Shown in pieces: positions 11,769 through 46,673 of a stretch of 64,000 bases of DNA. Source of the DNA: an uncultured Clostridium sp. (lineage in GTDB: Bacteria; Cyanobacteriota; Vampirovibrionia; Gastranaerophilales; Gastranaerophilaceae); NCBI GenBank assembly GCA_902472585.1, contig CABROM010000001.1, positions 221,864-285,863 on the forward strand, in the 5' to 3' direction. Position numbers and translations under genes: made by a program. The notes under the pieces were generated by a model, which was not told the DNA's origin, did no database searches, and saw only the letters and a list, made by a program, of their open reading frames with translations. The first letter of the stretch is position 1; each line of letters begins with the position of its first letter.

Positions 11769-13208
11769 TCAAATTAATTCTTTATATAATTTCAAATATT
11801 TTTGAGAACTTCTGCCCCAAGAAAAATCAGCTTCCATAGCAGATTTTCTCATAGCATTAAAAGTATATTTATCTTGATAAACGCCTAACGAGCAATAAAT
11901 TGCCTGCATCATATCCCAACCTGAATAACCCCAGAACTTAAATCCTGTTGAATCATTCAAAGGATAACCGTTTACGGTATCTTCCAAACCGCCCGTTGCT
12001 CTAACAATTGGCAATGAACCATAACGCATCGCAATTAATTGACTCAAACCGCAAGGCTCAAATTTTGAAGGCATTAAATAAAAATCACTTCCAGCATAAA
12101 TTTGATTAGCCAAATCACCACGATAACCAATATATGCTCTGATATTTGAAGAATTATTAGATAACCAGATTAAAAGATTTTCATAATCCTTTTCACCGCT
12201 TCCTAAAAATACAAAATCAGCATTCAAAGACTTTAACTCATTTTCGCATTGTCTGATTAAATCAATTCCTTTTTGAGAAACAAGCCTTGACACCATTGCA
12301 TACATAGGTCTTTCAGGATTATATTTTAATCCGAATTCCTCACAAACTTTCTTTTTATTCTTCTCTTTATTTTTCAAAGATTTTACATCGTAATTTTTTA
12401 CGATAGATTTATCTGTTTTCGGATTAAACACATCATAATCAATACCGTTTAAAATTCCGACAACTTTTTGCTGATTCATACGAAGGGTATAATCCATTCC
12501 CTCACCGTATTCACCTGTCATAATTTCTTTTGCATAAGTCGGAGAAACAGCAATTACTTTATCAGCATAATTGATAGCACCCTTCATCCAATTAACCTTG
12601 CCATAATGCTCAACTCCCCATTCATTATAGACAATATCTTTTCTCATATTTGCAAAATCAAGCACGTCCTCAAACCAAACACCTTGATAAGCAAGATTAT
12701 GAATTTCAAAAACACATTTTGTATTTTTCCAGAAATCATCAAATCTGTAATTACTGTGCAAATAAACAGGAATCATAGCTGTATGCCAATCATTAGCATG
12801 AATAATATCAGCCTTAAAGTTTAATAATTTTGCATACTCCATTGTTGCAAGAGAAAATGCAATATATCTTTCATGCTCATATTTTGGATCAAGCCATTTA
12901 GGATAAACTTCTTTAAAACAAGAAAAATACCAATCATTATGCACAAAAAATACATTAATATTAGTTCCGGGAAGCTTGCACATAAATAATTTGAATCTAT
13001 GTCCCATACCGTTGAACGTAAGCCATAATGAAGAATTTTCTAATTCCTTAATTCCCCATTTATTCACATCTATACAACCGTGTAACGGAGTAAATATCGC
13101 AATTTGTGCATCTTTTTCCAATGCTTTTGGCAAACTTCCGACAACATCGGCTAACCCTCCGGCCTTAGAAAACGGAGCTACTTCTACTGATGCAAATAAA
13201 ATTTTCAT
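11769..13208 (-). CDS. glgA: Glycogen synthase (ADP-glucose type)
   Basis: MKILFASVEVAPFSKAGGLADVVGSLPKAL N-terminal signature. 479 aa. Confidence 0.92.
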   Translation of the reverse strand: MKILFASVEVAPFSKAGGLADVVGSLPKALEKDAQIAIFTPLHGCIDVNKWGIKELENSSLWLTFNGMGHRFKLFMCKLPGTNINVFFVHNDWYFSCFKEVYPKWLDPKYEHERYIAFSLATMEYAKLLNFKADIIHANDWHTAMIPVYLHSNYRFDDFWKNTKCVFEIHNLAYQGVWFEDVLDFANMRKDIVYNEWGVEHYGKVNWMKGAINYADKVIAVSPTYAKEIMTGEYGEGMDYTLRMNQQKVVGILNGIDYDVFNPKTDKSIVKNYDVKSLKNKEKNKKKVCEEFGLKYNPERPMYAMVSRLVSQKGIDLIRQCENELKSLNADFVFLGSGEKDYENLLIWLSNNSSNIRAYIGYRGDLANQIYAGSDFYLMPSKFEPCGLSQLIAMRYGSLPIVRATGGLEDTVNGYPLNDSTGFKFWGYSGWDMMQAIYCSLGVYQDKYTFNAMRKSAMEADFSWGRSSQKYLKLYKELI

Positions 13209-16200
13209 TATCCCTCACTTCCTGAATCATTACTGTTATCTTGTATACCTTCAGCACCACCTAATATATCTGCTGCCTCCTCTAAACTAACCTCATTATC
13301 TTCTTCATCTTCTTCAACAGCAATATAATGGTTTGGATCTGTATCAAATACAAAATTAACACCGTATTTTTGAGCAACATAATTTGCTTGAGCTATACAA
13401 ATATTTGCTTTCTCATAATCTTTTTTAAACATCATGACTTTATACATATTATACTTAAACAACATCAAAAGATATTCACTCGTAGAATTATTCTTTTCGA
13501 GCTGAATAAGTGAGTTATTAATAATTCCGAATGCAACATCATATTTGTTTTCTTTTAAATGTAACAAGCTCATTACATACCATGCAACATATAATAAAGT
13601 TGTCATTCCGTTATTATTAGTTTCTTTTATAATCTTGTAAATTATAGAATTTGCTTTTTTGAAAGAATTTAATTCCATATAGGAATAACCAACCATAAGA
13701 TCGGCAAACAACTCTAACTGATACAACCTGAAATGTTTTGCCGCAAGTTTTGCCTTATAAATATTTTCGGCAAATATATTGTAATCACCGTTAAAGTTAA
13801 CAAATGAATTAATCAAAGCTAAAATTGTATGACCGAAACGATCATTGTCGGAAATATTAAAATTAAGATTTGAAACTGATTTGCCATGAATTAACTGTTC
13901 CAAAACAATAAATAGATTATAAGATTCAGGAACAAAATTAATTTCGCCACGCAAAATATTTAAGAATTCACCAACATTACCGTACAATAATAAAACATTT
14001 GCCAAAGCAACATAACCTGCAGAATCAACAATCAATGATTTAAAATCATCTTCTGACATATAATCAGGTTTCAAAACACTTATAGTATCATTGCTTATAA
14101 CATTCAAAACCTTATAACCGATATCCAAACAGTCAACAAGTGCACCGATATTAAATAATATCTGAATATGAATAACAGACATTAAAAAGAAATACGTATT
14201 AAAATTTGGATCCGCAGGATTAATTGATGACGGAGGCAATAATGATAAGACCTTATGAGTCAATTCGAGAGCATGATTATAATTTCCCATAAATAATGAG
14301 CCGTTAATCATTTTATTGCACAAAAGGATAATTTGATCAGTATCTTTTGATTTTTCAAGATTTTTCAACGCACTTAATGCAATACCCGAAGTCTTATCTG
14401 GAATATACTCATAAAGATTTTGAGCAATATTCTTATATAAATTTTGTTTGTAATCCTCAAGCCTTTCCAACTGTTCAGGATCAGTATTTTTATCAAGAAG
14501 CTCTAATACTTTCTCGGTAGAATTCAAATATGCACTAAAATCACCAAGAGATAAATCAATATCGCTAAGCTGCTCCCACTGTTCTCTTTCCTTATCGGTT
14601 TCTTCCAAAAGGCCGTATAAATAAGCTTTTACAGGACTTGGCATACTTGAATCAAACACTTTGTCAAACAACTCATTTGCGACATCAGTTAAATAAATTT
14701 TACTAATCGTAGTTAATAAATTAGATCTCAACAAATTGTAATTAGGGAAATAAATACAATCATTATACTGATATATAAATCCCATATTTGCAAGCTTTTC
14801 TATAATTTCATCCTTGTTTTCATATCCAAGAGATTCAATAGTTGCCATATCAATACGTGTACCAAGTAAAACTATTGATGTTAAAAACTTCATAGTATCA
14901 ACATCATCTTGCAAAAGATTTAATCGGCGTGCGACTAATTTATCCAAGCTTGACGGAATAATAATAGTTTTAGGATTAATCATTTCAACACTATCATCAT
15001 CTGCCGCGAAAACACCTGATTCTATCAAATATTGCATTGCAATATCAATAAACAAAATACTTCCGCAAGCATATTTTGCAATTCTTTGGAAATAAAAATT
15101 ATTTAATATGTTACGATAATATATTTTATTTTCTTCAATTAATTTTTCAAACGGAGTAGGTTTTAACGTAATTTCAGTATAATAAGGTTTGCTTAACAAG
15201 AAATGGCAATCTTTATGTAATGAGAAGGATTTATCATAAGATATTAAAAAGCTTATATCAAGTTGTTCAAAAGACTCAAACAAATATTTTAGAACATCAT
15301 AAGAGCTTGAATCAATTTTATCAAAGTCTTCAACAAATATTAAAGTTTTTGGAATAATTTGTAAAAGAGTCAAGAAAATTTCAAAATAAACATGTCTTTT
15401 ATCCATGCTATCGCCATTATCGTTACGTCTATGTAACGTAATTAAATCTTTTATCAAACCGTCAGGATCAACTGATGAAAACATTGAAAAATCATTTGTT
15501 GAAAATAGTTTTTGAGAAACCGTATACTCAAAAATTGCTGAAACAAGTTCTCTAAAGAATGAATAAGGAGAATACTTCATCTCATCATAACAAGTTAGTG
15601 AGATAATATTATTAAATTTTCCTGTTTCTGCAGCTGCATTCAGCACTTTAATAGTATAAGGTTTATACATTTCTGCTGTTTTTATTGCGACAATACCTTT
15701 AGGTATATTTTGGAACTTGTTTAAAATATGGAATATAACATCGATATTTTCAGTTCTTATAAATTCACACTGAATTTCATCAAAATTAATTGTATCTATA
15801 TCATAAATTGCATCAGGATCTCCAGGAGAATCCAAATTATTTAAAGCCTCACCATCAAGTTTATCCTGCTCAATAAGCATATTTTGAACGAAATTCGGAA
15901 TTTCAATTTCTTTATCCTCATCCTCATCAGGATATTCGACCTTTACGAATTCTCTTAAATCCACCTCATAAAACATAACCATGTTATTTTTAATCATAAC
16001 AGAATTCAAAGGTGATACCTTGTAATCCCCACTAATAGAGTCAGTTACCTGATCGTCCGTTAAAACTTGGAAGGTATTTAAAATTTTATCGCTCTTATTT
16101 TTTGTAACTTGATTTAATAAACTGATATTGTAACCCGAATCGATATTATACGGATCATCGTTAATATTACGTCTTAAAAGAAACATGTTACAACGAACAG

Positions 16201-16738
16201 TAGCATTCTTTTTACGGGTTAATTTGCAGTTCATCGCTGTAATAAGGTTTAAAAGATCAATAGCAGCTTTAACAGCACTTGCAGCAGAGCTATTAAATGT
16301 ATAATCTTTATCAAACCTTATAACATAAGTTTTATTAATTATTTGTCTGCGAAGTCCGATAGATTTTGCGTAATCAAAAATAATTTTGTCTAAATTAATT
16401 TTAAACTTGTTCAATAATTTTGCAGAACCGAACAAGTCTTTCATTTCATTAATATTAGGAAAATCAATCGTCAAAATAACAAAATCATCAGAATTTGCTT
16501 CATTCAATATAACACTTTTTTCAGTATCAAAACCGCACTTTCTGCATTTTTTGTTAATTGTCTGATTGATTTTTCCACAATTATGACATTTATTGATAAT
16601 TACATAGCCGCATTTTTTGCAGGTATTAGTTGTATTAATAGTTTTGCAAATCGGACAAGCAAGCTTTAGTACCTTTTTACAATTCGGGCACACCATAGCT
16701 TTATCATCGATTTCATAACCACATTTAGGACATTCCAT
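13208..16738 (-). CDS. Large (1176 aa) multidomain protein: N-terminal triple zinc-ribbon (CxxC x6), central region of unknown function, TPR-like helical repeats, acidic C-terminal tail
   Basis: MECPKCGYEIDDKAMVCPNCKK...CPICKTINTTNTCKKCG...CHNCGKINQTINKKCRKCG. No Walker A motif seen. C-terminus EEDEEDNEVSLEEAADILGG. The start overlaps the glgA stop region. Confidence 0.6.
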   Translation of the reverse strand: MECPKCGYEIDDKAMVCPNCKKVLKLACPICKTINTTNTCKKCGYVIINKCHNCGKINQTINKKCRKCGFDTEKSVILNEANSDDFVILTIDFPNINEMKDLFGSAKLLNKFKINLDKIIFDYAKSIGLRRQIINKTYVIRFDKDYTFNSSAASAVKAAIDLLNLITAMNCKLTRKKNATVRCNMFLLRRNINDDPYNIDSGYNISLLNQVTKNKSDKILNTFQVLTDDQVTDSISGDYKVSPLNSVMIKNNMVMFYEVDLREFVKVEYPDEDEDKEIEIPNFVQNMLIEQDKLDGEALNNLDSPGDPDAIYDIDTINFDEIQCEFIRTENIDVIFHILNKFQNIPKGIVAIKTAEMYKPYTIKVLNAAAETGKFNNIISLTCYDEMKYSPYSFFRELVSAIFEYTVSQKLFSTNDFSMFSSVDPDGLIKDLITLHRRNDNGDSMDKRHVYFEIFLTLLQIIPKTLIFVEDFDKIDSSSYDVLKYLFESFEQLDISFLISYDKSFSLHKDCHFLLSKPYYTEITLKPTPFEKLIEENKIYYRNILNNFYFQRIAKYACGSILFIDIAMQYLIESGVFAADDDSVEMINPKTIIIPSSLDKLVARRLNLLQDDVDTMKFLTSIVLLGTRIDMATIESLGYENKDEIIEKLANMGFIYQYNDCIYFPNYNLLRSNLLTTISKIYLTDVANELFDKVFDSSMPSPVKAYLYGLLEETDKEREQWEQLSDIDLSLGDFSAYLNSTEKVLELLDKNTDPEQLERLEDYKQNLYKNIAQNLYEYIPDKTSGIALSALKNLEKSKDTDQIILLCNKMINGSLFMGNYNHALELTHKVLSLLPPSSINPADPNFNTYFFLMSVIHIQILFNIGALVDCLDIGYKVLNVISNDTISVLKPDYMSEDDFKSLIVDSAGYVALANVLLLYGNVGEFLNILRGEINFVPESYNLFIVLEQLIHGKSVSNLNFNISDNDRFGHTILALINSFVNFNGDYNIFAENIYKAKLAAKHFRLYQLELFADLMVGYSYMELNSFKKANSIIYKIIKETNNNGMTTLLYVAWYVMSLLHLKENKYDVAFGIINNSLIQLEKNNSTSEYLLMLFKYNMYKVMMFKKDYEKANICIAQANYVAQKYGVNFVFDTDPNHYIAVEEDEEDNEVSLEEAADILGGAEGIQDNSNDSGSEG

Positions 16739-37436: not shown

Positions 37437-38567
37437 TCAATTAGCTATTTTTCCTAAAATAACCCTTTTTGAAGCCCCCGTGCAAGACGGTAAATTATTA
37501 GGAATTCCATAATATGTACAGTAACCAAGCAATGCAAATGCCATAACTTCTTTAAAATTATTTGAAATTCCGTAAGCTTCATGTGTTTTCAAATCGATAT
37601 GTTTTGGAAGATAATGCCTTATATATTTCATTAAAGTAGGATTATATGCGCCCCCACCACCAATAATAACTTCTTTAACATCAATATCAGGATAAATAAA
37701 TCTTTCATAAGCAGATGTTATTGTTTTTGCAGTAAGTGCAGTTGCTGTTGCAATAATATCTTCAGGTTTTTTAGGCCCGAAACGGAGAGCATTTTCAATA
37801 TATTCTGCTGAAAAATATTCTCTCCCTGTTGTTTTAGGCGGAGTTTTAAAATAATATTCATCTTGCATTAAACATTCAAGCCAGCTTTCAGAAACTTTAC
37901 CCGAATCTGCGATTTTGCCATCTTTATCATAAGGCTTTTTAAAATACTTGTTAGTACAATAATCAATCATAATATTTCCAAGCCCTGTATCAAATCCGAA
38001 TGTCGGAAAATCTTTGGAAATCACAGTAACATTTGAAATACCACCGATATTTTGAACGAGCAGATTTTTCTTTAACGGCTTGAACCATTTTTCATCCGCA
38101 AAGCAAACCAAAGGTGCCCCCTCACCACCTGCTGCAATATCAGCTTCTCTAAAATTTGAGATAGTTAAGCATCCTGTTTCTTGAGCAATAACAGAGCTTT
38201 CGCCAATTTGTAACGTACTTTTTAAAGAAATTTTATCTAACTTTTCATCAATCGGAAAATGAAATATAGTCTGACCATGACTTGCAATAAAATCAGGCTT
38301 GCCATGTTCTGATATCAAAACTTTACAAGCTTCAGCAAAACAATGACCGATTACAAAATTCATTTGGCAAACATCTTTAACAGAAACATTTCCGGAAAAA
38401 AGTTGAAAAATTTTTGCTCTGATATGTTCAGGATACTTATAATTTATGCCTGAAATTAATTTTACAGACAAATCAGGATGCACTTCACATAAACCTGCAT
38501 CAATACTGTCACAAGATGTACCTGACATTAATCCTATTACAAGTTTTGTCTGCAACTCATCAACCAT
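37437..38567 (-). CDS. anmK: Anhydro-N-acetylmuramic acid kinase
   Basis: LVIGLMSGTSCDSIDAGL N-terminal signature. 376 aa. Confidence 0.88.
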   Translation of the reverse strand: MVDELQTKLVIGLMSGTSCDSIDAGLCEVHPDLSVKLISGINYKYPEHIRAKIFQLFSGNVSVKDVCQMNFVIGHCFAEACKVLISEHGKPDFIASHGQTIFHFPIDEKLDKISLKSTLQIGESSVIAQETGCLTISNFREADIAAGGEGAPLVCFADEKWFKPLKKNLLVQNIGGISNVTVISKDFPTFGFDTGLGNIMIDYCTNKYFKKPYDKDGKIADSGKVSESWLECLMQDEYYFKTPPKTTGREYFSAEYIENALRFGPKKPEDIIATATALTAKTITSAYERFIYPDIDVKEVIIGGGGAYNPTLMKYIRHYLPKHIDLKTHEAYGISNNFKEVMAFALLGYCTYYGIPNNLPSCTGASKRVILGKIAN

Positions 38568-38582
38568 ACTCTATATAATATA

Positions 38583-38612
38583 AAAAAGCTTGCACTTTAG
38601 CAAGCCTTTTTA
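38583..38612. terminator. Bidirectional hairpin with flanking A/T runs immediately upstream of the anmK start
   Basis: aaaaagcttgcactttagcaagccttttt (gcttgc/gcaagc stem). Confidence 0.5.
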
Positions 38613-38892
38613 TATTCAACTATCTCCTACTCCCCTAAAATTTTCTTTACTCCCATAATACTTTTAAAAATAAAAAATTAAATCGATAAAAAAAATATCC
38701 CTAATCGTTCTCTGCACTTCCAAAAGTTTCTTTTTTGTTTCCTTTCTAAACCTTTTTCACAACTATCGGACTTTGCCATCACCTCTCTTTTTCATTTCCG
38801 ATTTTTTTAACTATCCGGCAGCCGTTCTGAATTTCTTTTATTCAGTTCCTTGCCCCTCCACGTTTTTTAATGTAAATCTAAGTTAAAAGTTT

Positions 38893-38921
38893 GACAAGTA
38901 AAGAAAAATAAAATAAAATTT
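38893..38921 (+). promoter_or_regulatory. Candidate sigma-70 promoter for the WYL-regulator operon
   Basis: TTGACA - 17 nt - TAAAAT (tttgacaagtaaagaaaaataaaataaaat), ~200 nt upstream of the ATG at 39121. Confidence 0.45.
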
Positions 38922-39120
38922 ACAATTGACCATGCCCCTATATTTATCAAGCAAAAATTCAAGTTCTTAAATCTTAATGAAGAAAACTTAATGAAATAAA
39001 GTAAAAATAAAAAAATTTTTAATTGACATTTTATAATTAGCGATAACATTATATGCTAATTACATGCTTTGTAACTAATAATTATTTTTATAGTAAACTA
39101 TTAATAATGGGGAAAATACA

Positions 39121-40065
39121 ATGAAAGAGTTTATTAAAAATCAAAAAGTTACATACAACCTGATGTCTTTCACAGGTTTCAAAGCTCTTCTTATTTTTTC
39201 GCTGCTTGCAGATGGACCAAAGTCTTATGAAGACATAAATCAATATCTTTTTAACCACCCATATTTAAGAGAAAAAATATCAATAGATACACTAAGAGTT
39301 TACATAAATTCTCTAAAGCGTCTTGGTTGCGAAGTCAAAAGGGTTAGAGGAGAAGACAAAATTTCAAGATACGTTATAACCAAACATCCTTTTGAATTAA
39401 AATTAACACAAGACCAAATTCAAAGTATAATCAAGGTTTACAAAAGTATTGTTAAAAGCATGGATATCAAAGAAATTATTTCGATGGCACATTTCTTTGA
39501 AAAAATAGGTGCATATATTAAAAATCAAGAATTTGTTGCCGAAATCAAAAAAATTTCTATGCTAAACGATGTGGATATCAAGCTTTTGGAAGACTTGGTT
39601 GAATGCTGCGATAAAAAAGAACAAATCGTTATTTTATATAATTCTCCAAATTCAGGTAAAAAAAATGTAGAATTAATTGCAGATAAAATAGAAACTTCAA
39701 ACGGGAAAATTTATCTTTACGGTACCGGTTTTGAATACATGCAATACGGAAGTTTTCTTGTCAGCAGAATTATTAAAATTAATGAAATTAAATTACACTC
39801 AAATATTCCAAAAGATATTAAAAGCTTAAAAATTATATACGAACTAAATTGTGATGAACAAAAAGTTAAATTACTTACTAATGAAAAAATTATAAACTCG
39901 ACAAATAACAAAACCATTGTAGAAATGGACACTTCTAATGAATTTTTAGCAAAACAAAGATTATTAGAATACGGCCCGTTATGCAAAATATTAGAACCTG
40001 AAAGCTTTAAAAAAGATTTTATTAATCTTTTGAAAGATATGAAAGCGGGGTATTATTGTGACTAA
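39121..40065 (+). CDS. WYL-domain transcriptional regulator (wHTH - WYL - WCX architecture), first of a tandem pair
   Basis: N-terminal HTH-like SYEDINQYLFNHP...ISIDTLRVYINSLKRLG. WYL-like beta-barrel segment IVILYNSPNSGKKNVELIADKIETSNGKIYLYGTGFEYMQYGSFLVSRIIKINEI. C-terminal YGPLCKILEPESFK (WCX-like). 314 aa. Confidence 0.65.
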   Translation: MKEFIKNQKVTYNLMSFTGFKALLIFSLLADGPKSYEDINQYLFNHPYLREKISIDTLRVYINSLKRLGCEVKRVRGEDKISRYVITKHPFELKLTQDQIQSIIKVYKSIVKSMDIKEIISMAHFFEKIGAYIKNQEFVAEIKKISMLNDVDIKLLEDLVECCDKKEQIVILYNSPNSGKKNVELIADKIETSNGKIYLYGTGFEYMQYGSFLVSRIIKINEIKLHSNIPKDIKSLKIIYELNCDEQKVKLLTNEKIINSTNNKTIVEMDTSNEFLAKQRLLEYGPLCKILEPESFKKDFINLLKDMKAGYYCD

Positions 40066-40984
40066 AAAATTAACAGAAAAATACAATGATTCCTGCATAA
40101 AGTTGTTCACCTTTATAAAAATGCTATATGAAGGTGATGTTGAATTTAAAAAAGTTATCGATTTACTATCAGACGGAAATTATGACGGAACATCAAACAC
40201 GCATGTAACCCTTAACAAATATCTGAATGCCATGAAAATATTTGGTCTTAAAGTAAAAAAGATTAAGGGCAAATATCACATGTTCAGTTCTATTTATAAA
40301 ATTAAATTCAACCTTGAAGATATCAAAAGTATAAATTTATTAAAAGAAGCTGGTTCAATTCTTCCTGATGGGAAAAATAAAACAAATTTTGAAAGTTTTA
40401 TAAATAGTCTTGAAATGCGTTATGATGAATCCGCACAAAGTCTTGAACAAATTGAAAATAATACAAAGAACTTAAATCTGTCATTTTATCATTCTGAAAT
40501 GGTAGAACAAGTAAAAAAATGCGAAAAATACTGCCAGGATAAATTAAAATTAGAAATTATTTACACAGATGACAAAGGTGAAGAAATAAATCTTGTATGT
40601 TCACCTGTTGAACAAATTTATCAAAAAAGAAAAATTTGTCTGAAAGCAATCGGACAAAACGGAAGCAGAGTATATGAAATTCCGATTGAAAATATAATAT
40701 CAATAAAACAATTACCGTCAGCATCTTCATCACAATCAATTCCAACGACAGTAGTTTACAGAATAAAAAACAGACTTGCCAGAAACTATAAAATTCGTGA
40801 CTGGGAAAGATTAGACAAAATAGAATCTGACGGAAGCCATATAATAGTAAATAAAAACGAAGATTTACATTCTCTTATTAACAGACTTATGAGATATGGC
40901 AGACAATGCGAAATTATATCTCCAAAATTCTTAAAAGAAGAAATGATTGAAAATATAAATAAAACACTTGCGAATTACGAATAA
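40058..40984 (+). CDS. WYL-domain transcriptional regulator, second of the tandem pair (GTG start overlapping the upstream stop by 8 nt)
   Basis: LEIIYTDDKGEEINLVCSPVEQIYQKRKICLKAIGQNGSRVYEIPIENIISIKQL fits the WYL-domain consensus pattern (...Y.d.kGe...r.v.P..l.....wYL.a.c...g..R.FrldRI.s...l). C-terminal MRYGRQCEIISPKFLKEEM (WCX-like). 308 aa. Confidence 0.7.
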   Translation: MTKKLTEKYNDSCIKLFTFIKMLYEGDVEFKKVIDLLSDGNYDGTSNTHVTLNKYLNAMKIFGLKVKKIKGKYHMFSSIYKIKFNLEDIKSINLLKEAGSILPDGKNKTNFESFINSLEMRYDESAQSLEQIENNTKNLNLSFYHSEMVEQVKKCEKYCQDKLKLEIIYTDDKGEEINLVCSPVEQIYQKRKICLKAIGQNGSRVYEIPIENIISIKQLPSASSSQSIPTTVVYRIKNRLARNYKIRDWERLDKIESDGSHIIVNKNEDLHSLINRLMRYGRQCEIISPKFLKEEMIENINKTLANYE

Positions 40985-41073
40985 TTTATCAAATTTTCTA
41001 TTTATTGAATTTATAAATTACATTATTTAACATTCAATTCATTCTTAAATTCATACATGCTAAAATTTTAATT

Positions 41074-44000
41074 ATGGATAAGAACACACAATTTGTACCA
41101 CTACATCTTCACAGTGAATTTTCATTACTGGACGGGGCTATAAAGCTAAAAGAACTTTGCAAATTTGCAAAAGAAAATAACATGCCTGCCGTTGCAATTA
41201 CGGATCACGGTGTTATGTATGGTGCACTTGATTTATATTTGGAAGCAAAAGAAGCAGGAATAAAGCCAATTATAGGTTGTGAATTTTATGTCCATAACGG
41301 AGATATTACAGAAAGAGATCCGAATAACAACCCGAGATATCACTTAATCCTCTTAGCAAAAAACAACGAAGGCTACATGAACCTTGTAAAGCTTGCATCA
41401 GATGCGGCTTGCAAAGGATTTTACATGAAACCTCGTATTAACTTTGAATTATTGAAAGAACGCCATGAAGGAATAATTTGCTGTTCAGCATGTTTAGGCG
41501 GCGAGGTTTTACAAAACTTGCTAAAAGGAGATTATGAAGAAGCCAAAGCTGTTGCCAAACGCTATAAAGATTTATTCGGAGACGATTATTATATAGAACT
41601 TCAAGATCACGGACTGGAAGAACAAAAAAGAACTAACCCTGATTTAATTAAAATTGCAAAAGAGCTTGGGATAAAAATGATTATCACAAACGATTCCCAC
41701 TATTTGCGAAAAGAAGATGCCGACTGGCATGATACATTGCTTTGTATGCAAACTCAGTCTATGAAGGATGAAGAAAATCGTTTCCATTTTCCGAATAACG
41801 AATTTTATGTAAAAACAGTTTCTGAAATGCGTGACGCATTCAAATGGATGGATTCTGAAACTTTTGACGAATGTATTAAAAACACAGTCGATATAGCAGA
41901 ACAATGTCATGTAACAATTAAATGGGAAGCTCCTTTACCAGATTTTCCGGTTCCGCCAAATCATACAACCGATTCTTATTTGGAAGAACTTGTAATGCAA
42001 GGTTTAAAAAAGAAATACAAAGAAGAACAAATAACTCCGGAATTAAAAGAACGTGTAAAATATGAACTCGGAATTATTGAAAAAATGGGATTTTCCGCAT
42101 ACTTCTTAATAACTTGGGATTTTATCCATTTTGCAAAAACTCATGATATTCCGGTAGGTCCAGGTAGAGGTTCAGCGGCAGGTTCAGTTGTTGCATACGC
42201 ACTTGATATTACAGATTTGGATCCAATCAGGCACCATCTGTTGTTTGAAAGATTTTTGAACCCTGAACGTTTCAGCATGCCTGATATTGATACAGACTTT
42301 TGTATTGAAAAACGTGGAGAAGTTATCGATTACGTTGTAAAAAAATACGGAGCAGATAAAGTTTGCCAAATTATTACCTTCAATACACTTGCTGCCAGAA
42401 ACGCATTCAAAAGTGTTGCAAGAGTCTTTGGCATGGAGTATGCAAAGAGTAACAAAACAGCATCTTTAATTGAAGATACTATTGAAGGTTCAATGATTGA
42501 AGGTTCAGAACTTAAAAATTTATATGACACTGATCCTGAAATAAAAAGAGTAATTGATACAGCCAAAAATGTTGAAGGTATAAAATGCGGTATCGGTATG
42601 CATGCTGCAGGTGTAATCATTTCTTACAAACCGCTTGATCAAATCGTACCTGTTCAGCCATCTAAAGACGGAATTATTATTACGCAATACCACAGAGAAA
42701 TTTTAGAGAAAATGAAACTTCTAAAAATGGACTTTTTGGGGTTGCGTAACCTTACTATGATTCATAAGACCGTAAAACTCGTAAAAAAATGTCAGGGAAT
42801 TGATGTTGATATAAATCACATTCCGCTCGATGACAAACCAACTTATGACATGCTTGTTCGAGGAGAAACAGTCGGAGTATTCCAGCTTGAATCTTCCGGC
42901 ATGACAAATTTGGTAAAGAAATTAAAACCTGACGTATTTGAAGATTTAGGCGCTTTAGTAGCTCTATTCAGACCTGGACCTTTAGGATCCGGCATGGTAG
43001 ATGACTTCGTAGAAAGAAAACACGGTCGTCAGGCTATTACTTATGCTCACCCAAGATTGGAACCTATCTTAAAAGATACATACGGAACAATGGTTTACCA
43101 AGAACAGATTATGCAAATCTTCCAGGTTATGGCAGATTATTCTCTTGGGCAAGCCGACCAGGTTCGCCGTATGATGGGGCACAAAGACCCTGTTGCCATG
43201 GCTGCTCAAAAAGATAAGTTAATCGAAGGTTCAGCAAAATATGGCATGAAAGCAGAAGATGCTACAAAACTTTTTGATCAAATTCAAAATTTCGCGGCAT
43301 ACTGCTTTAACAGAGCCCATTCATCAGCCTATGCGTTCGTTGCATATCAAACAGCTTATTTGAAATGCCATTATCCTGTTGAATATTTATCAGCTCTATT
43401 ATCAAGTGTTGCGGGAGATCAGGATAAAACTCAAAGCTATATTGAAGAAGCATTGAAATACGGAATAAAAGTTTTACCGCCTGATATTAACAAGTCATAT
43501 CTTGAATACGCACCTGACGGACATAACATAAGATTTGGACTTGCTTCAATTAAACAAGTAGGAGAAGGTGTAATTGAAGAAATTATAAAAGAAAGAGAAG
43601 AAAACGGCGAATATAAATCAATATATGATTATATTAAACGTTTAGATACAAAATGTTCAAACAAAAAAACGCTTGAAGGCTTGATTAAAGCAGGCGCATT
43701 TGCATCAATTGAAAAAAGCAGAAAACAATTGATGGATAATATTGAATATATAACAGCAACAGCATCAAAAGAATCAAAAGCAAAAGAATCAGGACAAGGA
43801 AGTTTGTTTGACATGCTTGGCGATACAGCAGAAATTGCAGATGCGAAATTTCAACTTTCAGGTTCAGATGAAGAATATGATGCAAGAACATTACAAAATT
43901 TTGAAAAAGAATTTTTGGGCTTTTATGTAACAAGTCACCCGCTATCAACTATAAGGGACAAATTACCGTTTCTTATGACTCATAAAATTTCAGAAATTCC

Positions 44001-44553
44001 TGAACTTCCGAATGACAAGATTGTAACTATCTGCGGACTTGTCACTACAATGCGACAAATTCCGACTAAAAAAGATCCGACAAAATTCATACGCTTTTTA
44101 ACAATAGAAGATTTGTCAGGGAAAATAGAAGCCATCGCATTTAACAGAAAAATTGCGGAATACGGAGATATTCTACAAAGCGAACAACGCGTAATTATTT
44201 CAGGCAAAGTAAACAGAAGAAGCGATGACGAACCGCCATCCATTGTTATAGAAAGCGTAAAAACTGTTGATAATTCAAATATATTTACAATAACACTTCT
44301 TGATGATTTTAAATTTGAAGAAATAGTACTTTTAAAAAATATTTTATGCCAACATTCAGGCTCAGATCCAGTTATGTTTAAACTAAAAGATTTTGATACT
44401 GATGTAAAAATCTTATCAGCATCAATTTTCTGGGTTGAAAGTTCAAATGAGTTGGTAAATCAATTAAAAAGACAATTCGGCGAAAGGCTTGAAACCAATA
44501 TAAGTTCTATGGATACAAACGAAAAAGTGGAAGAAGAACCAACCGCTGCATAA
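41074..44553 (+). CDS. dnaE: DNA polymerase III alpha subunit
   Basis: PHP N-terminus (VPLHLHSEFSLLDGAIK...AITDHGVMYGAL), polymerase core, OB-fold tail. 1159 aa. Confidence 0.95.
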   Translation: MDKNTQFVPLHLHSEFSLLDGAIKLKELCKFAKENNMPAVAITDHGVMYGALDLYLEAKEAGIKPIIGCEFYVHNGDITERDPNNNPRYHLILLAKNNEGYMNLVKLASDAACKGFYMKPRINFELLKERHEGIICCSACLGGEVLQNLLKGDYEEAKAVAKRYKDLFGDDYYIELQDHGLEEQKRTNPDLIKIAKELGIKMIITNDSHYLRKEDADWHDTLLCMQTQSMKDEENRFHFPNNEFYVKTVSEMRDAFKWMDSETFDECIKNTVDIAEQCHVTIKWEAPLPDFPVPPNHTTDSYLEELVMQGLKKKYKEEQITPELKERVKYELGIIEKMGFSAYFLITWDFIHFAKTHDIPVGPGRGSAAGSVVAYALDITDLDPIRHHLLFERFLNPERFSMPDIDTDFCIEKRGEVIDYVVKKYGADKVCQIITFNTLAARNAFKSVARVFGMEYAKSNKTASLIEDTIEGSMIEGSELKNLYDTDPEIKRVIDTAKNVEGIKCGIGMHAAGVIISYKPLDQIVPVQPSKDGIIITQYHREILEKMKLLKMDFLGLRNLTMIHKTVKLVKKCQGIDVDINHIPLDDKPTYDMLVRGETVGVFQLESSGMTNLVKKLKPDVFEDLGALVALFRPGPLGSGMVDDFVERKHGRQAITYAHPRLEPILKDTYGTMVYQEQIMQIFQVMADYSLGQADQVRRMMGHKDPVAMAAQKDKLIEGSAKYGMKAEDATKLFDQIQNFAAYCFNRAHSSAYAFVAYQTAYLKCHYPVEYLSALLSSVAGDQDKTQSYIEEALKYGIKVLPPDINKSYLEYAPDGHNIRFGLASIKQVGEGVIEEIIKEREENGEYKSIYDYIKRLDTKCSNKKTLEGLIKAGAFASIEKSRKQLMDNIEYITATASKESKAKESGQGSLFDMLGDTAEIADAKFQLSGSDEEYDARTLQNFEKEFLGFYVTSHPLSTIRDKLPFLMTHKISEIPELPNDKIVTICGLVTTMRQIPTKKDPTKFIRFLTIEDLSGKIEAIAFNRKIAEYGDILQSEQRVIISGKVNRRSDDEPPSIVIESVKTVDNSNIFTITLLDDFKFEEIVLLKNILCQHSGSDPVMFKLKDFDTDVKILSASIFWVESSNELVNQLKRQFGERLETNISSMDTNEKVEEEPTAA

Positions 44554-44615: not shown

Positions 44616-44687
44616 GCGGGGGTAATTCAGTGGTAGAATGCCTCCTTGCCAAGGAGGATGTCGCGAGTTCGAGCCTCGTCTCCCGCT
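44616..44687 (+). tRNA. tRNA-Gly (anticodon GCC)
   Basis: gcgggggtaattcagtggtagaatgcctccttGCCaaggaggatgtcgcgagttcgagcctcgtctcccgct. Cloverleaf fits (7-bp acceptor with one G-U, D-stem attc/gaat, 5-bp anticodon stem, T-arm gcgag/ctcgt). No CCA encoded. Confidence 0.9.
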
Positions 44688-44693
44688 AATTAA

Positions 44694-44725
44694 AAAAGGA
44701 TTGGATTTATTCCAGTCCTTTTTTA
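44694..44725 (+). terminator. Terminator after tRNA-Gly(GCC)
   Basis: aaaaaaggattggatttattccagtccttttttaa. Confidence 0.7.
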
Positions 44726-44756
44726 ATTTATTGAGATACAGGTGAGAACTTATTTT

Positions 44757-44875
44757 GAGTTCGAGCGAACTGCGAGCAGAGGGCGAAGACTTGACTGCGT
44801 ATGGCTTTAGCCACTTAAGCAGACAAGCGTAGACCTGTTTAACGCGAGCAGGTCAAGACAGCCTCGTCTCCCGTC
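44757..44875 (+). other. Split partial duplicate of the tRNA-Gly 3' end (T-loop ... acceptor) interrupted by a ~100-nt structured insert
   Basis: gagttcgagc (44757-44766) and gcctcgtctcccg (44861-44873) together reproduce cgagttcgagcctcgtctcccg of the adjacent tRNA-Gly. The intervening sequence has internal complementarity (cttgac/gtcaag, tggct/agcca, gacctg/caggtc) and a direct repeat gcgagcag x2. Confidence 0.6.
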
Positions 44876-44949
44876 ATCATTAGATGGAGCTTTTTTATTT
44901 TACTAAATTATTAAAATACAGACTAATATTCACATTCCGTTCACTTAAT

Positions 44950-45610
44950 TTATTTTCTTGGAACATATAAACAAGCGTACTTATCAAAATAAAACAATAT
45001 ACGTCCGTCTTTTAACAGAACTGAATACCCTCCAGGTCTTTTATAAGGCATATTTTTTATCAATACAGATTTACCTGTTTCAGGATTGAATATTTCAGTT
45101 CGATTTTCATATATACCATCTCCTGAAAAATTACCGGATTTTTCAATATTTTGACCTCCATTTACTAAAATATTTCCATCTGGTAATAATGTCATGTTAT
45201 ACAAATAAACTGATCCTCTCGGAACAATTAATTTCCCTAGTTCAACAATTTTAACCAATAAATTTCGTGTTCAAACTGTTCTGAAGGTTCTTTAAATAAA
45301 GGTGCTATAAACAAAATTTTATTTTTGTTTAATCCAATAGCTTTAGTATTATCATGCTTATTAATCGATGTATTGAGAGTTGCAATTTTCTTGAATTTAT
45401 TAGTATTAGGATCAAAATTTATAATATTATCATCAGAAATTATAAATACTCTCCGTCATTAAATTGAACAGGCATCCCCAAATGATAATCAGTATTTATT
45501 TTTTCAAAATGCCCGTTTTTATAATCTAAAGCATAAACATTAGATGGAATTAGCAAATAAAAAAATAATATTACTATTAATAAAAATATTCTTTTATAAC
45601 CCAGCATCAT
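44950..45610 (-). pseudogene. Frameshifted remnant of a secreted Kelch-like/beta-propeller repeat protein gene
   Basis: Minus-strand ATG at 45610 gives a signal peptide MMLGYKRIFLLIVILFFYLLIPSNVYA.... The reading frame is then broken into at least three pieces; the last (44950..45258) carries ...LLPDGNILVNGGQNIEKSGNFSGDGIYENRTEIFNPETGKS... Kelch-like motifs. Confidence 0.6.
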
Positions 45611-45754
45611 TTACAATAAACTCCAACTCTTATCATAAATAAAAGATTAGGGAATTTTACACATTTTGTCAAGCTAAAAAATAAATTTTTAAAAGAATTT
45701 TACTTGCATGATTTATGCATATTTGATAAACTTATAAAGTTAAAATAATAAATT

Positions 45755-45829
45755 GCGGAAGTAATTCAGTGGTAGAATGCAACCTTCCCAAGGTTGACGT
45801 CGCGGGTTCGAGTCCCGTCTTCCGCTCCA
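45755..45829 (+). tRNA. tRNA-Gly (anticodon CCC), CCA encoded
   Basis: gcggaagtaattcagtggtagaatgcaaccttCCCaaggttgacgtcgcgggttcgagtcccgtcttccgctcca. Clean cloverleaf. Confidence 0.88.
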
Positions 45830-45835
45830 TAAAAA

Positions 45836-45866
45836 AATAACCCATAATTCTGGGTTATTTTTTTAT
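45836..45866 (+). terminator. Terminator after tRNA-Gly(CCC)
   Basis: aacccataattctgggttatttttttattt. Confidence 0.75.
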
Positions 45867-45884
45867 TTCTAAATTTTTTTAATT

Positions 45885-46226
45885 TTACCATTTTTTAAAT
45901 ATAAAAAATGCTGCAAAAACAATAAAAATAAATCCAACAAGGTAATTCCACTTAAATTCTTCTTTCAAATACAAAACAGAGAAGAAACTAAATACAATAA
46001 GCGTAATTACTTCTTGTATTGTTTTTAATTGAGCTGCGGAATATACACTGCTACCGATTCTGTTTGCAGGGACTTGAAAACAATATTCAAAAAATGCTAT
46101 TCCCCAACTGATAAGAATAACCGCCCATAGAGCAGTAGATTTGTGTTTTAAATGCCCATACCAGGCAAATGTCATAAATATATTAGAAATTGCTAATAAT
46201 AAAATTGGAGTAAAATATCTTGTCAT
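45885..46226 (-). CDS. Small 4-TM membrane protein (DMT-superfamily-like, DUF486-type)
   Basis: 113 aa, four hydrophobic helices. Family assignment from size and topology only. Confidence 0.4.
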   Translation of the reverse strand: MTRYFTPILLLAISNIFMTFAWYGHLKHKSTALWAVILISWGIAFFEYCFQVPANRIGSSVYSAAQLKTIQEVITLIVFSFFSVLYLKEEFKWNYLVGFIFIVFAAFFIFKKW

Positions 46227-46325
46227 TTATAATCACCTTTCAAAATTCCAAAAATATTATACATCAAATACGAAAGAGAGTATTGACATTTAAATATTTT
46301 CTTAATACAATAGTTCATGTGACTT

Positions 46326-46397
46326 GCCGACTTGGCTCAATGGTAGAGCAACGGTTTTGTAAACCGTAGGTTGTAGGTTCGATTCCTATAGTCGGCA
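46326..46397 (+). tRNA. tRNA-Thr (anticodon UGU)
   Basis: gccgacttggctcaatggtagagcaacggttTTGTAaaccgtaggttgtaggttcgattcctatagtcggca. Anticodon loop tttgtaa. Confidence 0.88.
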
Positions 46398-46429
46398 TTT
46401 TTCTTGAAAATTAAATAAGAATTTTTATA

Positions 46430-46448
46430 TATTTGAGCCTTTGTGGCG
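46430..46448 (+). repeat. 19-nt direct repeat duplicating the 5' flank and first 12 nt of tRNA-Thr(GGU) (second copy 46491-46509)
   Basis: tatttgagcctttgtggcg occurs at 46430 and again at 46491, where it runs into the real tRNA. Confidence 0.85.
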
Positions 46449-46497
46449 AGGATTCATAAGACAAAATGTTTTATGAAAATGATGTAAACTTATTTGA

Positions 46498-46569
46498 GCC
46501 TTTGTGGCGCAGGGGTAGCGCACTCCCTTGGTAAGGGAGAGGCCACGGGTTCAAATCCCGTCAAAGGCA
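46498..46569 (+). tRNA. tRNA-Thr (anticodon GGU)
   Basis: gcctttgtggcgcaggggtagcgcactcccttGGTaagggagaggccacgggttcaaatcccgtcaaaggca. Confidence 0.88.
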
Positions 46570-46587
46570 TTTTTGAAAATTTAATAT

Positions 46588-46673
<86 letters not shown>

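Follow-up and report, generated by a model that had tools for sequence, protein, structure and literature searches.

The subject of this report is a tandem pair of regulatory genes, here called A and B, in a 64,000-nucleotide (nt) stretch of chromosomal DNA (the window; positions 221,864 to 285,863 of contig CABROM010000001.1, assembly GCA_902472585.1), which has a G+C content of ~31% and comes from a metagenome-assembled genome (MAG) of the Gastranaerophilales, or gut Melainabacteria. Both genes encode proteins consisting of winged helix-turn-helix (wHTH), WYL, and WCX domains, and the pair is located upstream of dnaE. Judging from the sequences, the predicted structures, and the distribution of the pair, A-B is, with a probability of roughly 0.55 in our estimation, an independently evolved, anciently duplicated, and translationally coupled regulator, which is probably heterodimeric, asymmetric, and gated by a ligand. 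The genes and their signals are as follows.

39109..39112, plus strand: Shine-Dalgarno-like GGGG of A, 8 nt before the ATG of A
39121..40065, plus strand: gene A, ATG start, 314 amino acids (aa), wHTH-WYL-WCX regulator
40046..40049, plus strand: Shine-Dalgarno-like GGGG run for B, inside the 3' end of A
40058..40065, plus strand: A/B overlap GTGACTAA, 8 nt, made up of the GTG start of B and the TAA stop of A
40058..40984, plus strand: gene B, GTG start, 308 aa, wHTH-WYL-WCX regulator, paralog of A
41074..44553, plus strand: dnaE, DNA polymerase III alpha, 1159 aa, usually but not always the next gene after B

The intergenic region 5' of A (38568-39120, 553 nt) is bordered on its other side by anmK, the anhydro-MurNAc kinase gene, which is encoded on the minus strand with its coding region bounded at 38567. 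The stop codon of B is followed after 89 nt by the start of dnaE, whose product carries the PHP, pol III alpha, finger, HhH, and OB domains of Pfam. A first-pass annotation, made from the letters of this DNA without database searches, had described the pair as overlapping by 8 nt in a translationally coupled arrangement and as lying directly before dnaE and after a gap of ~550 bp, and all of its coordinates were accurate. Because the first 21 residues of B are conserved as protein in 38 homologs, with invariant K8, N10, C13, K15, F17, and F19, we take the GTG start of B to be real in preference to the alternative start M22, which was picked by one gene caller (P0121, 287 aa).

The signals for A and B in profile libraries were weak but consistent. 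The WCX model of Pfam matched B above its curated cut-off (25.3 bits vs. 23.9) and A below the cut-off (20.4 bits, E = 6.6e-4), the WYL model of Pfam matched A below the cut-off (E = 0.013) and did not match B, and none of the HTH models of Pfam matched either protein. Generic WYL models of PADLOC matched both A (E = 6.6e-12) and B (E = 8.1e-9), and precomputed matches to PF25583 (WCX) were found in many of the A and B homologs. Sequence and profile searches of A and B against PDB chains gave no significant WYL match (E > 0.1), and neither did an A profile restricted to the WYL-WCX part (A4). The predicted structures were decisive. AlphaFold2 models, for which alignments of 36 (A) and 38 (B) homologs were used as inputs, had predicted local distance difference test (pLDDT) scores of 80.8 for A and 77.5 for B. 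In both models, three helices and a beta-hairpin wing are followed by a helical linker, then by a barrel of five strands, and finally by a C-terminal alpha/beta domain. The limits in A are residues ~14-88 for the wHTH, 97-164 for the helical linker, 168-223 for the WYL barrel, and 236-306 for WCX, while the wHTH of B comprises residues 11-75 of its model. The predicted strands of the WYL barrel (KIYLYG...FLVSRI in A; KICLKA...IPIENI in B) coincide with the peptides that had been quoted as WYL barrel in the first-pass annotation.

When both models were compared with the PDB by Foldseek (E <= 1e-3), all of the 32 matches of A and all of the 26 matches of B were wHTH-WYL-WCX proteins, and none lay outside this family. 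The best match of A was PafBC (9fnd_X, E = 2.4e-11), followed by DriD (8tpk, E = 3e-10), CapW, and BrxR, and the best matches of B were DriD (8tp8, E = 2e-9) and PafBC (6sj9, E = 1.7e-7). The family matches comprise PafBC (9fnd, 6sj9), DriD (8tp8, 8tpk, 9pfq, 7tzv, 9cu3), CapW (9c5g, 7tb5, 7tb6), BrxR (7qfz, 7t8k, 7t8l), and a CRISPR-associated WYL protein (6oaw). The N-terminal wHTH is included in the full-length alignments to PafBC and DriD, structures of the WYL-WCX C-domain of DriD (7tzv, 9cu3) match both models with E ~1e-7, and A also showed weak matches to the wHTH of PadR/LmrR. On the strength of the models and these matches, together with the Pfam and PADLOC signals, A and B are wHTH-WYL-WCX regulators, and the earlier description of two ~310-aa proteins with HTH, WYL, and WCX parts is confirmed. 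The N-terminal tail of A (residues 1-18, 39121-39174; ...VTYNLMSFTG...) is invariant in the family, yet its pLDDT is <50 for residues 1-16; such an invariant and predicted-disordered tail could serve as a motif for contact between proteins.

A and B are collinear, full-length paralogs. Their profiles align over 267 columns (hhalign probability 96.9%, E = 1.5e-10), and the proteins are 25% identical over 290 aa in BLASTP, which bears out the earlier suggestion of tandem WYL paralogs with PafB/PafC-like architecture. In a scan of GTDB with one genome per species, 188 relatives were found and the best 80 loci were examined. B directly follows A in 77/78 of the loci with enough sequence to tell and in 19/19 metagenome loci, 62/73 species loci share the identical 8-nt overlap (the others range from -17 to +1 nt), and anmK is the divergent upstream neighbour in 66/71. 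The homolog alignments show both A and B under purifying selection. The homologs are named 'WYL domain-containing protein' and come from Candidatus Stercorousia, Gastranaerophilales, and 'Fusobacterium sp. CAG:439'. When 1.8 billion cluster representatives were searched with profiles, 584 relatives were obtained, 105 of them at E <= 1e-30, almost all of which score higher with the A profile than with the B profile. The few distant relatives with an organism name are again from Gastranaerophilales or MAGs and have uninformative protein names, and no relatives of A were found on phages or plasmids. Judging from these comparisons, A-B is a stable chromosomal feature of the Gastranaerophilales across the whole order.

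A distant pair was found in one further genome (GCA_028278605.1, L084:5393-7316), in which a gene that is A-like (P0413, 323 aa, scoring 166 bits with the A profile) overlaps by 8 nt, ATGCCTGA, with the B-like gene directly after it (319 aa, scoring 100 bits with the B profile). This pair is located in a different neighbourhood, downstream of an hflX-like GTPase gene, and the ultraconserved noncoding block that adjoins A-B in the window (described below) is absent there. Since such a distant pair has other neighbours, the duplication is old, and the pairing, not the neighbourhood, is the conserved unit.

Binding of single-stranded DNA (ssDNA) by PafBC needs the Tyr of the WYL motif (PafB Y196), two arginines (PafB R211/R214; PafC R201/R204), and further arginines, and the WYL domain is essential for this binding in PafB only (PMC11804915). 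Because the sequence searches of the PDB gave no significant WYL match, the corresponding residues of A and B were mapped by motif spacing (+15/+18 from the motif Tyr) and the predicted strands, with no structural superposition. On this mapping, the WYL site of A consists of I197-Y198-L199, L213, and R216, of which Y198 and R216 are invariant, and thus retains one PafBC-type Arg of the two, while that of B consists of I193-C194-L195, P209, and N212, has neither Arg, and is degenerate at the canonical ligand positions. In the distant L084 pair, the A-like protein keeps both arginines (LRIDRI) and the B-like protein again lacks the second. The recognition helices (...SIDTLRVYINSLKR... in A and ...SNTHVTLNKYLNA... 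in B) are each invariant within their own family and unlike one another, which suggests a non-palindromic DNA target.

The near-obligate co-occurrence of A and B, their translational coupling, and the complementary degeneration of their WYL sites argue for a heterodimer, which we consider likely. In the mechanism that we propose, overlap-coupled translation would supply A and B at ~1:1, and the two would assemble into an A-B heterodimer like PafB/PafC. The asymmetric dimer would read a non-palindromic site with its two distinct invariant recognition helices. A would be the sensing subunit through its partial canonical nucleic-acid-binding WYL site (Tyr198, Arg216), and B, with a degenerate WYL site, would support it, probably in a structural or allosteric role. 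A ligand at the WYL/WCX module, for which single-stranded nucleic acid is our best guess, would then switch the A-B operon itself and targets beyond the window. We give even odds to autoregulation of A-B, and a nucleic-acid ligand is a tentative assignment at somewhat less than that, the guess of a single-stranded ligand being uncertain because the arginines are depleted. The suggestion of ssDNA sensing in the first-pass annotation is weakened by the same residues (PMC11804915).

Among the known systems, PafBC of the Actinobacteria (PafB/PafC, e.g., of M. smegmatis; PDB 6SJ9, 9FND) is likewise encoded by tandem paralogous wHTH-WYL-WCX genes of ~310-330 aa in one operon, and its subunits are functionally asymmetric (PMC11804915), as proposed here for A-B. 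However, A-B belongs to another phylum lineage (Melainabacteria/Vampirovibrionia), as had been expected of a pair outside Actinobacteria, and no pafA-like gene or Pup-proteasome locus accompanies it in the window or in the related loci. The Arg pair (FRxxRI), which both PafB and PafC carry together with the motif Tyr, is half kept in A and absent in B as mapped by motif spacing. Because A and B are related to each other, while hidden Markov model searches detected no sequence-level similarity to the PafB/PafC chains of the PDB (E > 0.1), their duplication was probably independent of that of PafBC. A-B thus resembles PafBC in architecture and is probably not a member of the PafBC family. DriD of Caulobacter crescentus (PDB 8TP8, 8TPK, 9PFQ), which is SOS-independent, has the same three domains, is chromosomal like A-B, and ranked first among the Foldseek matches of B and second among those of A. 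In contrast to A-B, whose two diverged subunits occur together in nearly all loci and one of whose WYL sites is degenerate, DriD is a homodimer encoded by a single gene, binds one ssDNA per WYL domain, and activates didA and bapE, and for this reason we do not regard A-B as DriD-like. CapW and BrxR, the regulators of the cyclic-oligonucleotide-based antiphage signalling system (CBASS) and of bacteriophage exclusion (BREX), respectively (PDB 9C5G, 7TB6, 7QFZ, 7T8K), share the wHTH-WYL-WCX fold (Foldseek E of 1e-7 to 1e-4) but are single-gene homodimeric repressors beside defence operons, often on mobile islands, and A-B is not of this type because no defence system is present.

Public naming of the A and B homologs goes gene by gene, with labels such as YafY-type or 'WYL domain-containing protein' (class A of Mueller et al., 2019; PMC6789036), and a literature search found no paper joining WYL proteins with Melainabacteria. 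The fold and the general logic of A-B are therefore known, and what is new is the probably independent, asymmetric, order-wide pairing together with the adjoining ultraconserved noncoding unit. To our knowledge, no heterodimeric WYL regulator other than PafBC has been well studied, and the asymmetry of PafBC plays a central part in how it reprograms RNA polymerase. A-B would offer a second, natural case in which to ask what purpose asymmetry serves in the WYL fold, and it would open a first way into gene regulation in uncultured gut Melainabacteria.

The region between anmK and A contains the following features.

38580..38862, minus strand: C-depleted, purine-rich RNA-like element, ~283 nt here and 103-337 nt in other species
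38868..39030, no strand assigned: ultraconserved noncoding block of ~160 bp, which adjoins A-B but also occurs without A-B
39023..39052, plus strand: candidate proximal A-B promoter, TTGACA-18-CATTAT, with the -35 conserved across species and the -10 variable
39089..39094, plus strand: alternative -10 for A-B, TATAGT, conserved in the species alignment

This region had been described as a 550-bp noncoding region, of which the size stands, but it is not an empty leader, since conserved elements that are also present without A-B lie inside it. In an intergenic alignment of ~70 species, with identity measured to the window, the two sub-regions of the block (38868-38938 and 38951-39008) have median identities of 92% and 90%, whereas those of the flanking coding DNA are lower (A 68%, B 72%, dnaE 74%, anmK 80%, and spoU 83%), and the third codon positions of the flanking genes are 50-62% identical. 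The block carries promoter-like sites back to back with a common -35 (plus strand, TTGACA 38891-17-TAAAAT 38914; minus strand, TTGTCA 38897-17-TACATT 38874), a core, ACAATTGACCATGCCCC, at 38922-38938, and a direct repeat, CTTAATGAAG-N4-CTTAATGAAA, at 38973-38996. A metagenome scan with the 17-mer core gave 40 true copies, and loci in which the identity of A drops to 39-45% still retain the core.

The minus-strand element (A 39, G 26, U 27, and C 7%) always accompanies the block and ends at a hairpin and T-run that overlap the anmK promoter. Its invariant motifs are GAGGTGATGG at 38785-38776 and GATTAGGGAT at 38706-38697 (also given as TTAGGGAT); GAGGTGATGG is present in 64/65 species, as is TAGGGAT. 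GAGGTGATGG is a near-perfect anti-16S-3'-end match, and no usable start codon follows the motif. The hairpin, GCTTGC-N6-GCAAGC, has A and T runs on its sides, is terminator-like on both strands, and shows compensatory changes between clades. A search of Rfam at both the gathering and the E <= 10 thresholds detected only tRNAs and a terminator-like similarity at this hairpin, with no family for either element, and RNAalifold gave no consensus pairs in the minus-strand element or the plus-strand block, so that neither is supported as a structured RNA. A CsrB-like sponge was rejected for the minus-strand element, as GGA motifs are not enriched (z ~0.9), and a small open reading frame (ORF) was rejected for both elements, the frames being broken by indels and the ORFs being 2-34 codons long. 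A role as anmK leader or riboswitch is less probable because anmK has a promoter-like sequence of its own, TTGnnn-17-TAnnnT, which ends 3-9 nt before the ATG in 67/70 species; that of the window is TTGCTA-17-TATTAT (38568-38616) and ends 7 nt before the ATG. A -10 so close to the ATG implies a leaderless anmK mRNA. Transcripts of the locus are predicted to begin near 38926 (plus strand), 38862 (minus strand), 38567 (leaderless anmK), ~39059 or 39101 (A-B), and 41074 (leaderless dnaE). In sequence terms, the block and the purine-rich element are a conserved unit of their own next to anmK, with A-B usually alongside, and, independently of A-B, they may represent a noncoding locus that is new and conserved throughout this order of gut Melainabacteria. 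Being more conserved than dnaE and having no Rfam match, these two elements are possibly the more original lead.

On the other side of the pair, dnaE starts <150 nt from B in 48/66 species, from close and distant clades, is 150-2000 nt away in 5/66, and is absent from the locus in 13/66, where glnA, tig, an amidase/lysozyme gene, queH, a flagellar hook-like gene, der, an acyltransferase gene, a phospholipase D (PLD)-like gene, or yibE/F is found instead, frequently on the opposite strand. The pair is distributed order-wide, not sporadically, and its adjacency to dnaE holds in most relatives. The spacer between B and dnaE (9-91 nt in 52 loci) contains no Shine-Dalgarno sequence, and in the window it includes the following feature.

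41026..41066, plus strand: dnaE promoter-like region of the leaderless type, with TTTAACA at 41026-41032 and an extended -10, TGCTAAAAT, at 41058-41066

The extended -10 (TGnTAnnAT) is conserved. In the window, 7 nt separate its end from the ATG, and in the other spacers that were read this distance is 6-8 nt; dnaE therefore seems to be transcribed from a promoter of its own. A TTTA(A)CA, also conserved, lies ~27 nt upstream of the extended -10, which is too far for a normal -35, and no standard -35 is present; the promoter may thus be activator-dependent or otherwise unusual. The first-pass annotation had suggested looking for a shared operator, and no common motif above shuffles was found between the dnaE spacer and the region upstream of A, the longest common substrings being at chance level (2/36 at p <= 0.05). 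The motifs of the conserved upstream region were found nowhere else in the 64-kb window.

These results bear on the proposal of the first-pass annotation that A-B is part of a damage-responsive circuit, in which ssDNA from DNA damage would activate A-B in the manner of PafBC and thereby increase the expression of dnaE and of repair genes elsewhere. The architecture does parallel PafBC, the best structural matches (PafBC, DriD, and CapW) are ssDNA-activated, A keeps the WYL-motif Tyr and one Arg, its L084 counterpart keeps both arginines, dnaE is close to B in most species, and a TTTA(A)CA without a standard -35 is as expected of an activator-dependent promoter. Yet unrelated genes replace dnaE in 13/66 species, the dnaE spacer shares nothing beyond chance with the region upstream of A, arginines essential to PafBC are missing (one of two in A and both in B), and the window contains no recA, uvr, or lexA. 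Moreover, damage regulons switch on dnaE2/imuB or polymerases II, IV, and V, and the replicative dnaE is not typically among the genes that damage induces. We consider this circuit improbable, and a DNA-damage role of A-B unlikely. Because dnaE has moved away in 20% of species, appears to have its own promoter, and has a spacer with unshared motifs, the adjacency is best read as a shared, ancestral gene order, which corrects an attractive but unsupported inference: it is inherited gene order and no evidence of a damage circuit. Action of A-B at the dnaE promoter is conceivable for a promoter without a standard -35, and nothing supports it positively. The same annotation had offered, as an alternative, that the pair is a remnant regulator of a lost phage-defence island of the BrxR/CapW type. 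PADLOC models match both proteins, and BrxR and CapW are among the structural matches, but these models are generic WYL models and no others of PADLOC match, the window and the flanks of >100 related loci contain no defence gene, A has no phage or plasmid relatives, and the pair is conserved under purifying selection across the whole order in a fixed housekeeping context, so that this origin is effectively refuted.

Several observations weigh against the heterodimeric, ligand-gated regulator that we favour. The canonical Arg pair is incomplete in A and absent in B, and the ligand may differ from ssDNA. The co-transcribed paralogs could instead be two independent homodimers, each with its own operator and possibly its own ligand, in keeping with the homodimeric DriD, BrxR, and CapW and with the differing recognition helices of A and B. 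The fold can also work alone, as a distant A-family member is a singleton (P0284 in L081-L083; L081 gene 7001-7951); near metK, this gene stands in divergent orientation to a glutamate-synthase-like operon whose products have Glu_synthase, GXGXG, and Fer4 domains. Two such homodimers are nevertheless doubtful in view of the near-obligate co-occurrence, the conserved start/stop overlap, the persistence of the pairing in a distant lineage with other neighbours, and the WYL site of B, which is degenerate as expected of a partner-dependent subunit. The block, with its G-depleted flank, also occurs in L121, L146/L153, L116, and L163 with a convergent gene and no WYL gene next to it, and is therefore not simply a WYL operator. 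An inverted repeat in the promoter region of A-B, TAATTAGC-N13-GCTAATTA (39034-39062), was rejected as the operator, because conservation within the intergenic region is lowest where it is located (33% identity). In a further reading, A-B would bind the block and control the divergent purine-rich RNA, perhaps affecting peptidoglycan recycling via anmK, with the RNA possibly being a ligand of Sm-like WYL domains. In its favour, the fold of WYL domains is Sm/Hfq-like, with RNA binding by some of them (PMC6789036), no neighbour of A-B is more constant than anmK together with the conserved intergenic elements, and the block, with its back-to-back promoter-like sites, is more conserved than any flanking gene. 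But this is very unlikely given that both elements persist without A-B, that the distant L084 pair has no block, and that no operator-like symmetry is common to the block and the A-B promoter region. It would be bolder still to join the WYL pair and both noncoding elements in one module, in which the minus-strand RNA, with its invariant GAGGUGAUGG and UUAGGGAU, is the single-stranded ligand of the Sm/Hfq-like WYL domains of the A-B heterodimer; we regard this as a long shot, which, if true, would provide a transcription factor gated by a dedicated small RNA instead of damage-derived ssDNA.

The immediate neighbours of A-B are spoU, nnrD, anmK, and dnaE, and the window as a whole contains housekeeping genes only (polA, clpXP, tig, PBP4, spoU, nnrD, anmK, dnaE, tRNAs, miaA, and gcvP). 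A replication origin at this locus was considered and rejected: there is no skew inflection, and no DnaA-box-like motif was noticed on reading the sequence, although no box search was run. Directly 3' of dnaE, at 44616-46673, lies a tRNA cluster (Gly-GCC, Gly-CCC, Thr-TGT, Thr-GGT, and Tyr-GTA) interspersed with small ORFs. A 1176-aa ORF on the minus strand (13208-16738) has an N-terminal double zinc ribbon as its sole Pfam signal, and the remainder is unannotated. Among the start regions of the 49 window ORFs of >=130 aa, ~11 have a -10-like hexamer 4-10 nt before the start without a Shine-Dalgarno-like sequence, and 22 have a Shine-Dalgarno-like sequence; leaderless-type starts seem common in the source organism.

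Several records carry the Gastranaerophilales locus under the names of other taxa (L021, L026, L080, L048, L075, and L066), namely Clostridium sp. CAG:967 and CAG:768, Brachyspira sp. CAG:484, 'uncultured Muribaculaceae', and 'Heliobacteriaceae', with Fusobacterium sp. CAG:439 among the protein names; such records are probably mislabelled bins. In the genome closest to the window (L001), the dnaE protein is 100% identical, the dnaE DNA 96-99%, and the B DNA 94-96%, while gene A is only 87-92% identical to L001:6001-6945, with 100 nt and 24 aa differences, mostly synonymous. This local rise in divergence is suggestive of recombination.

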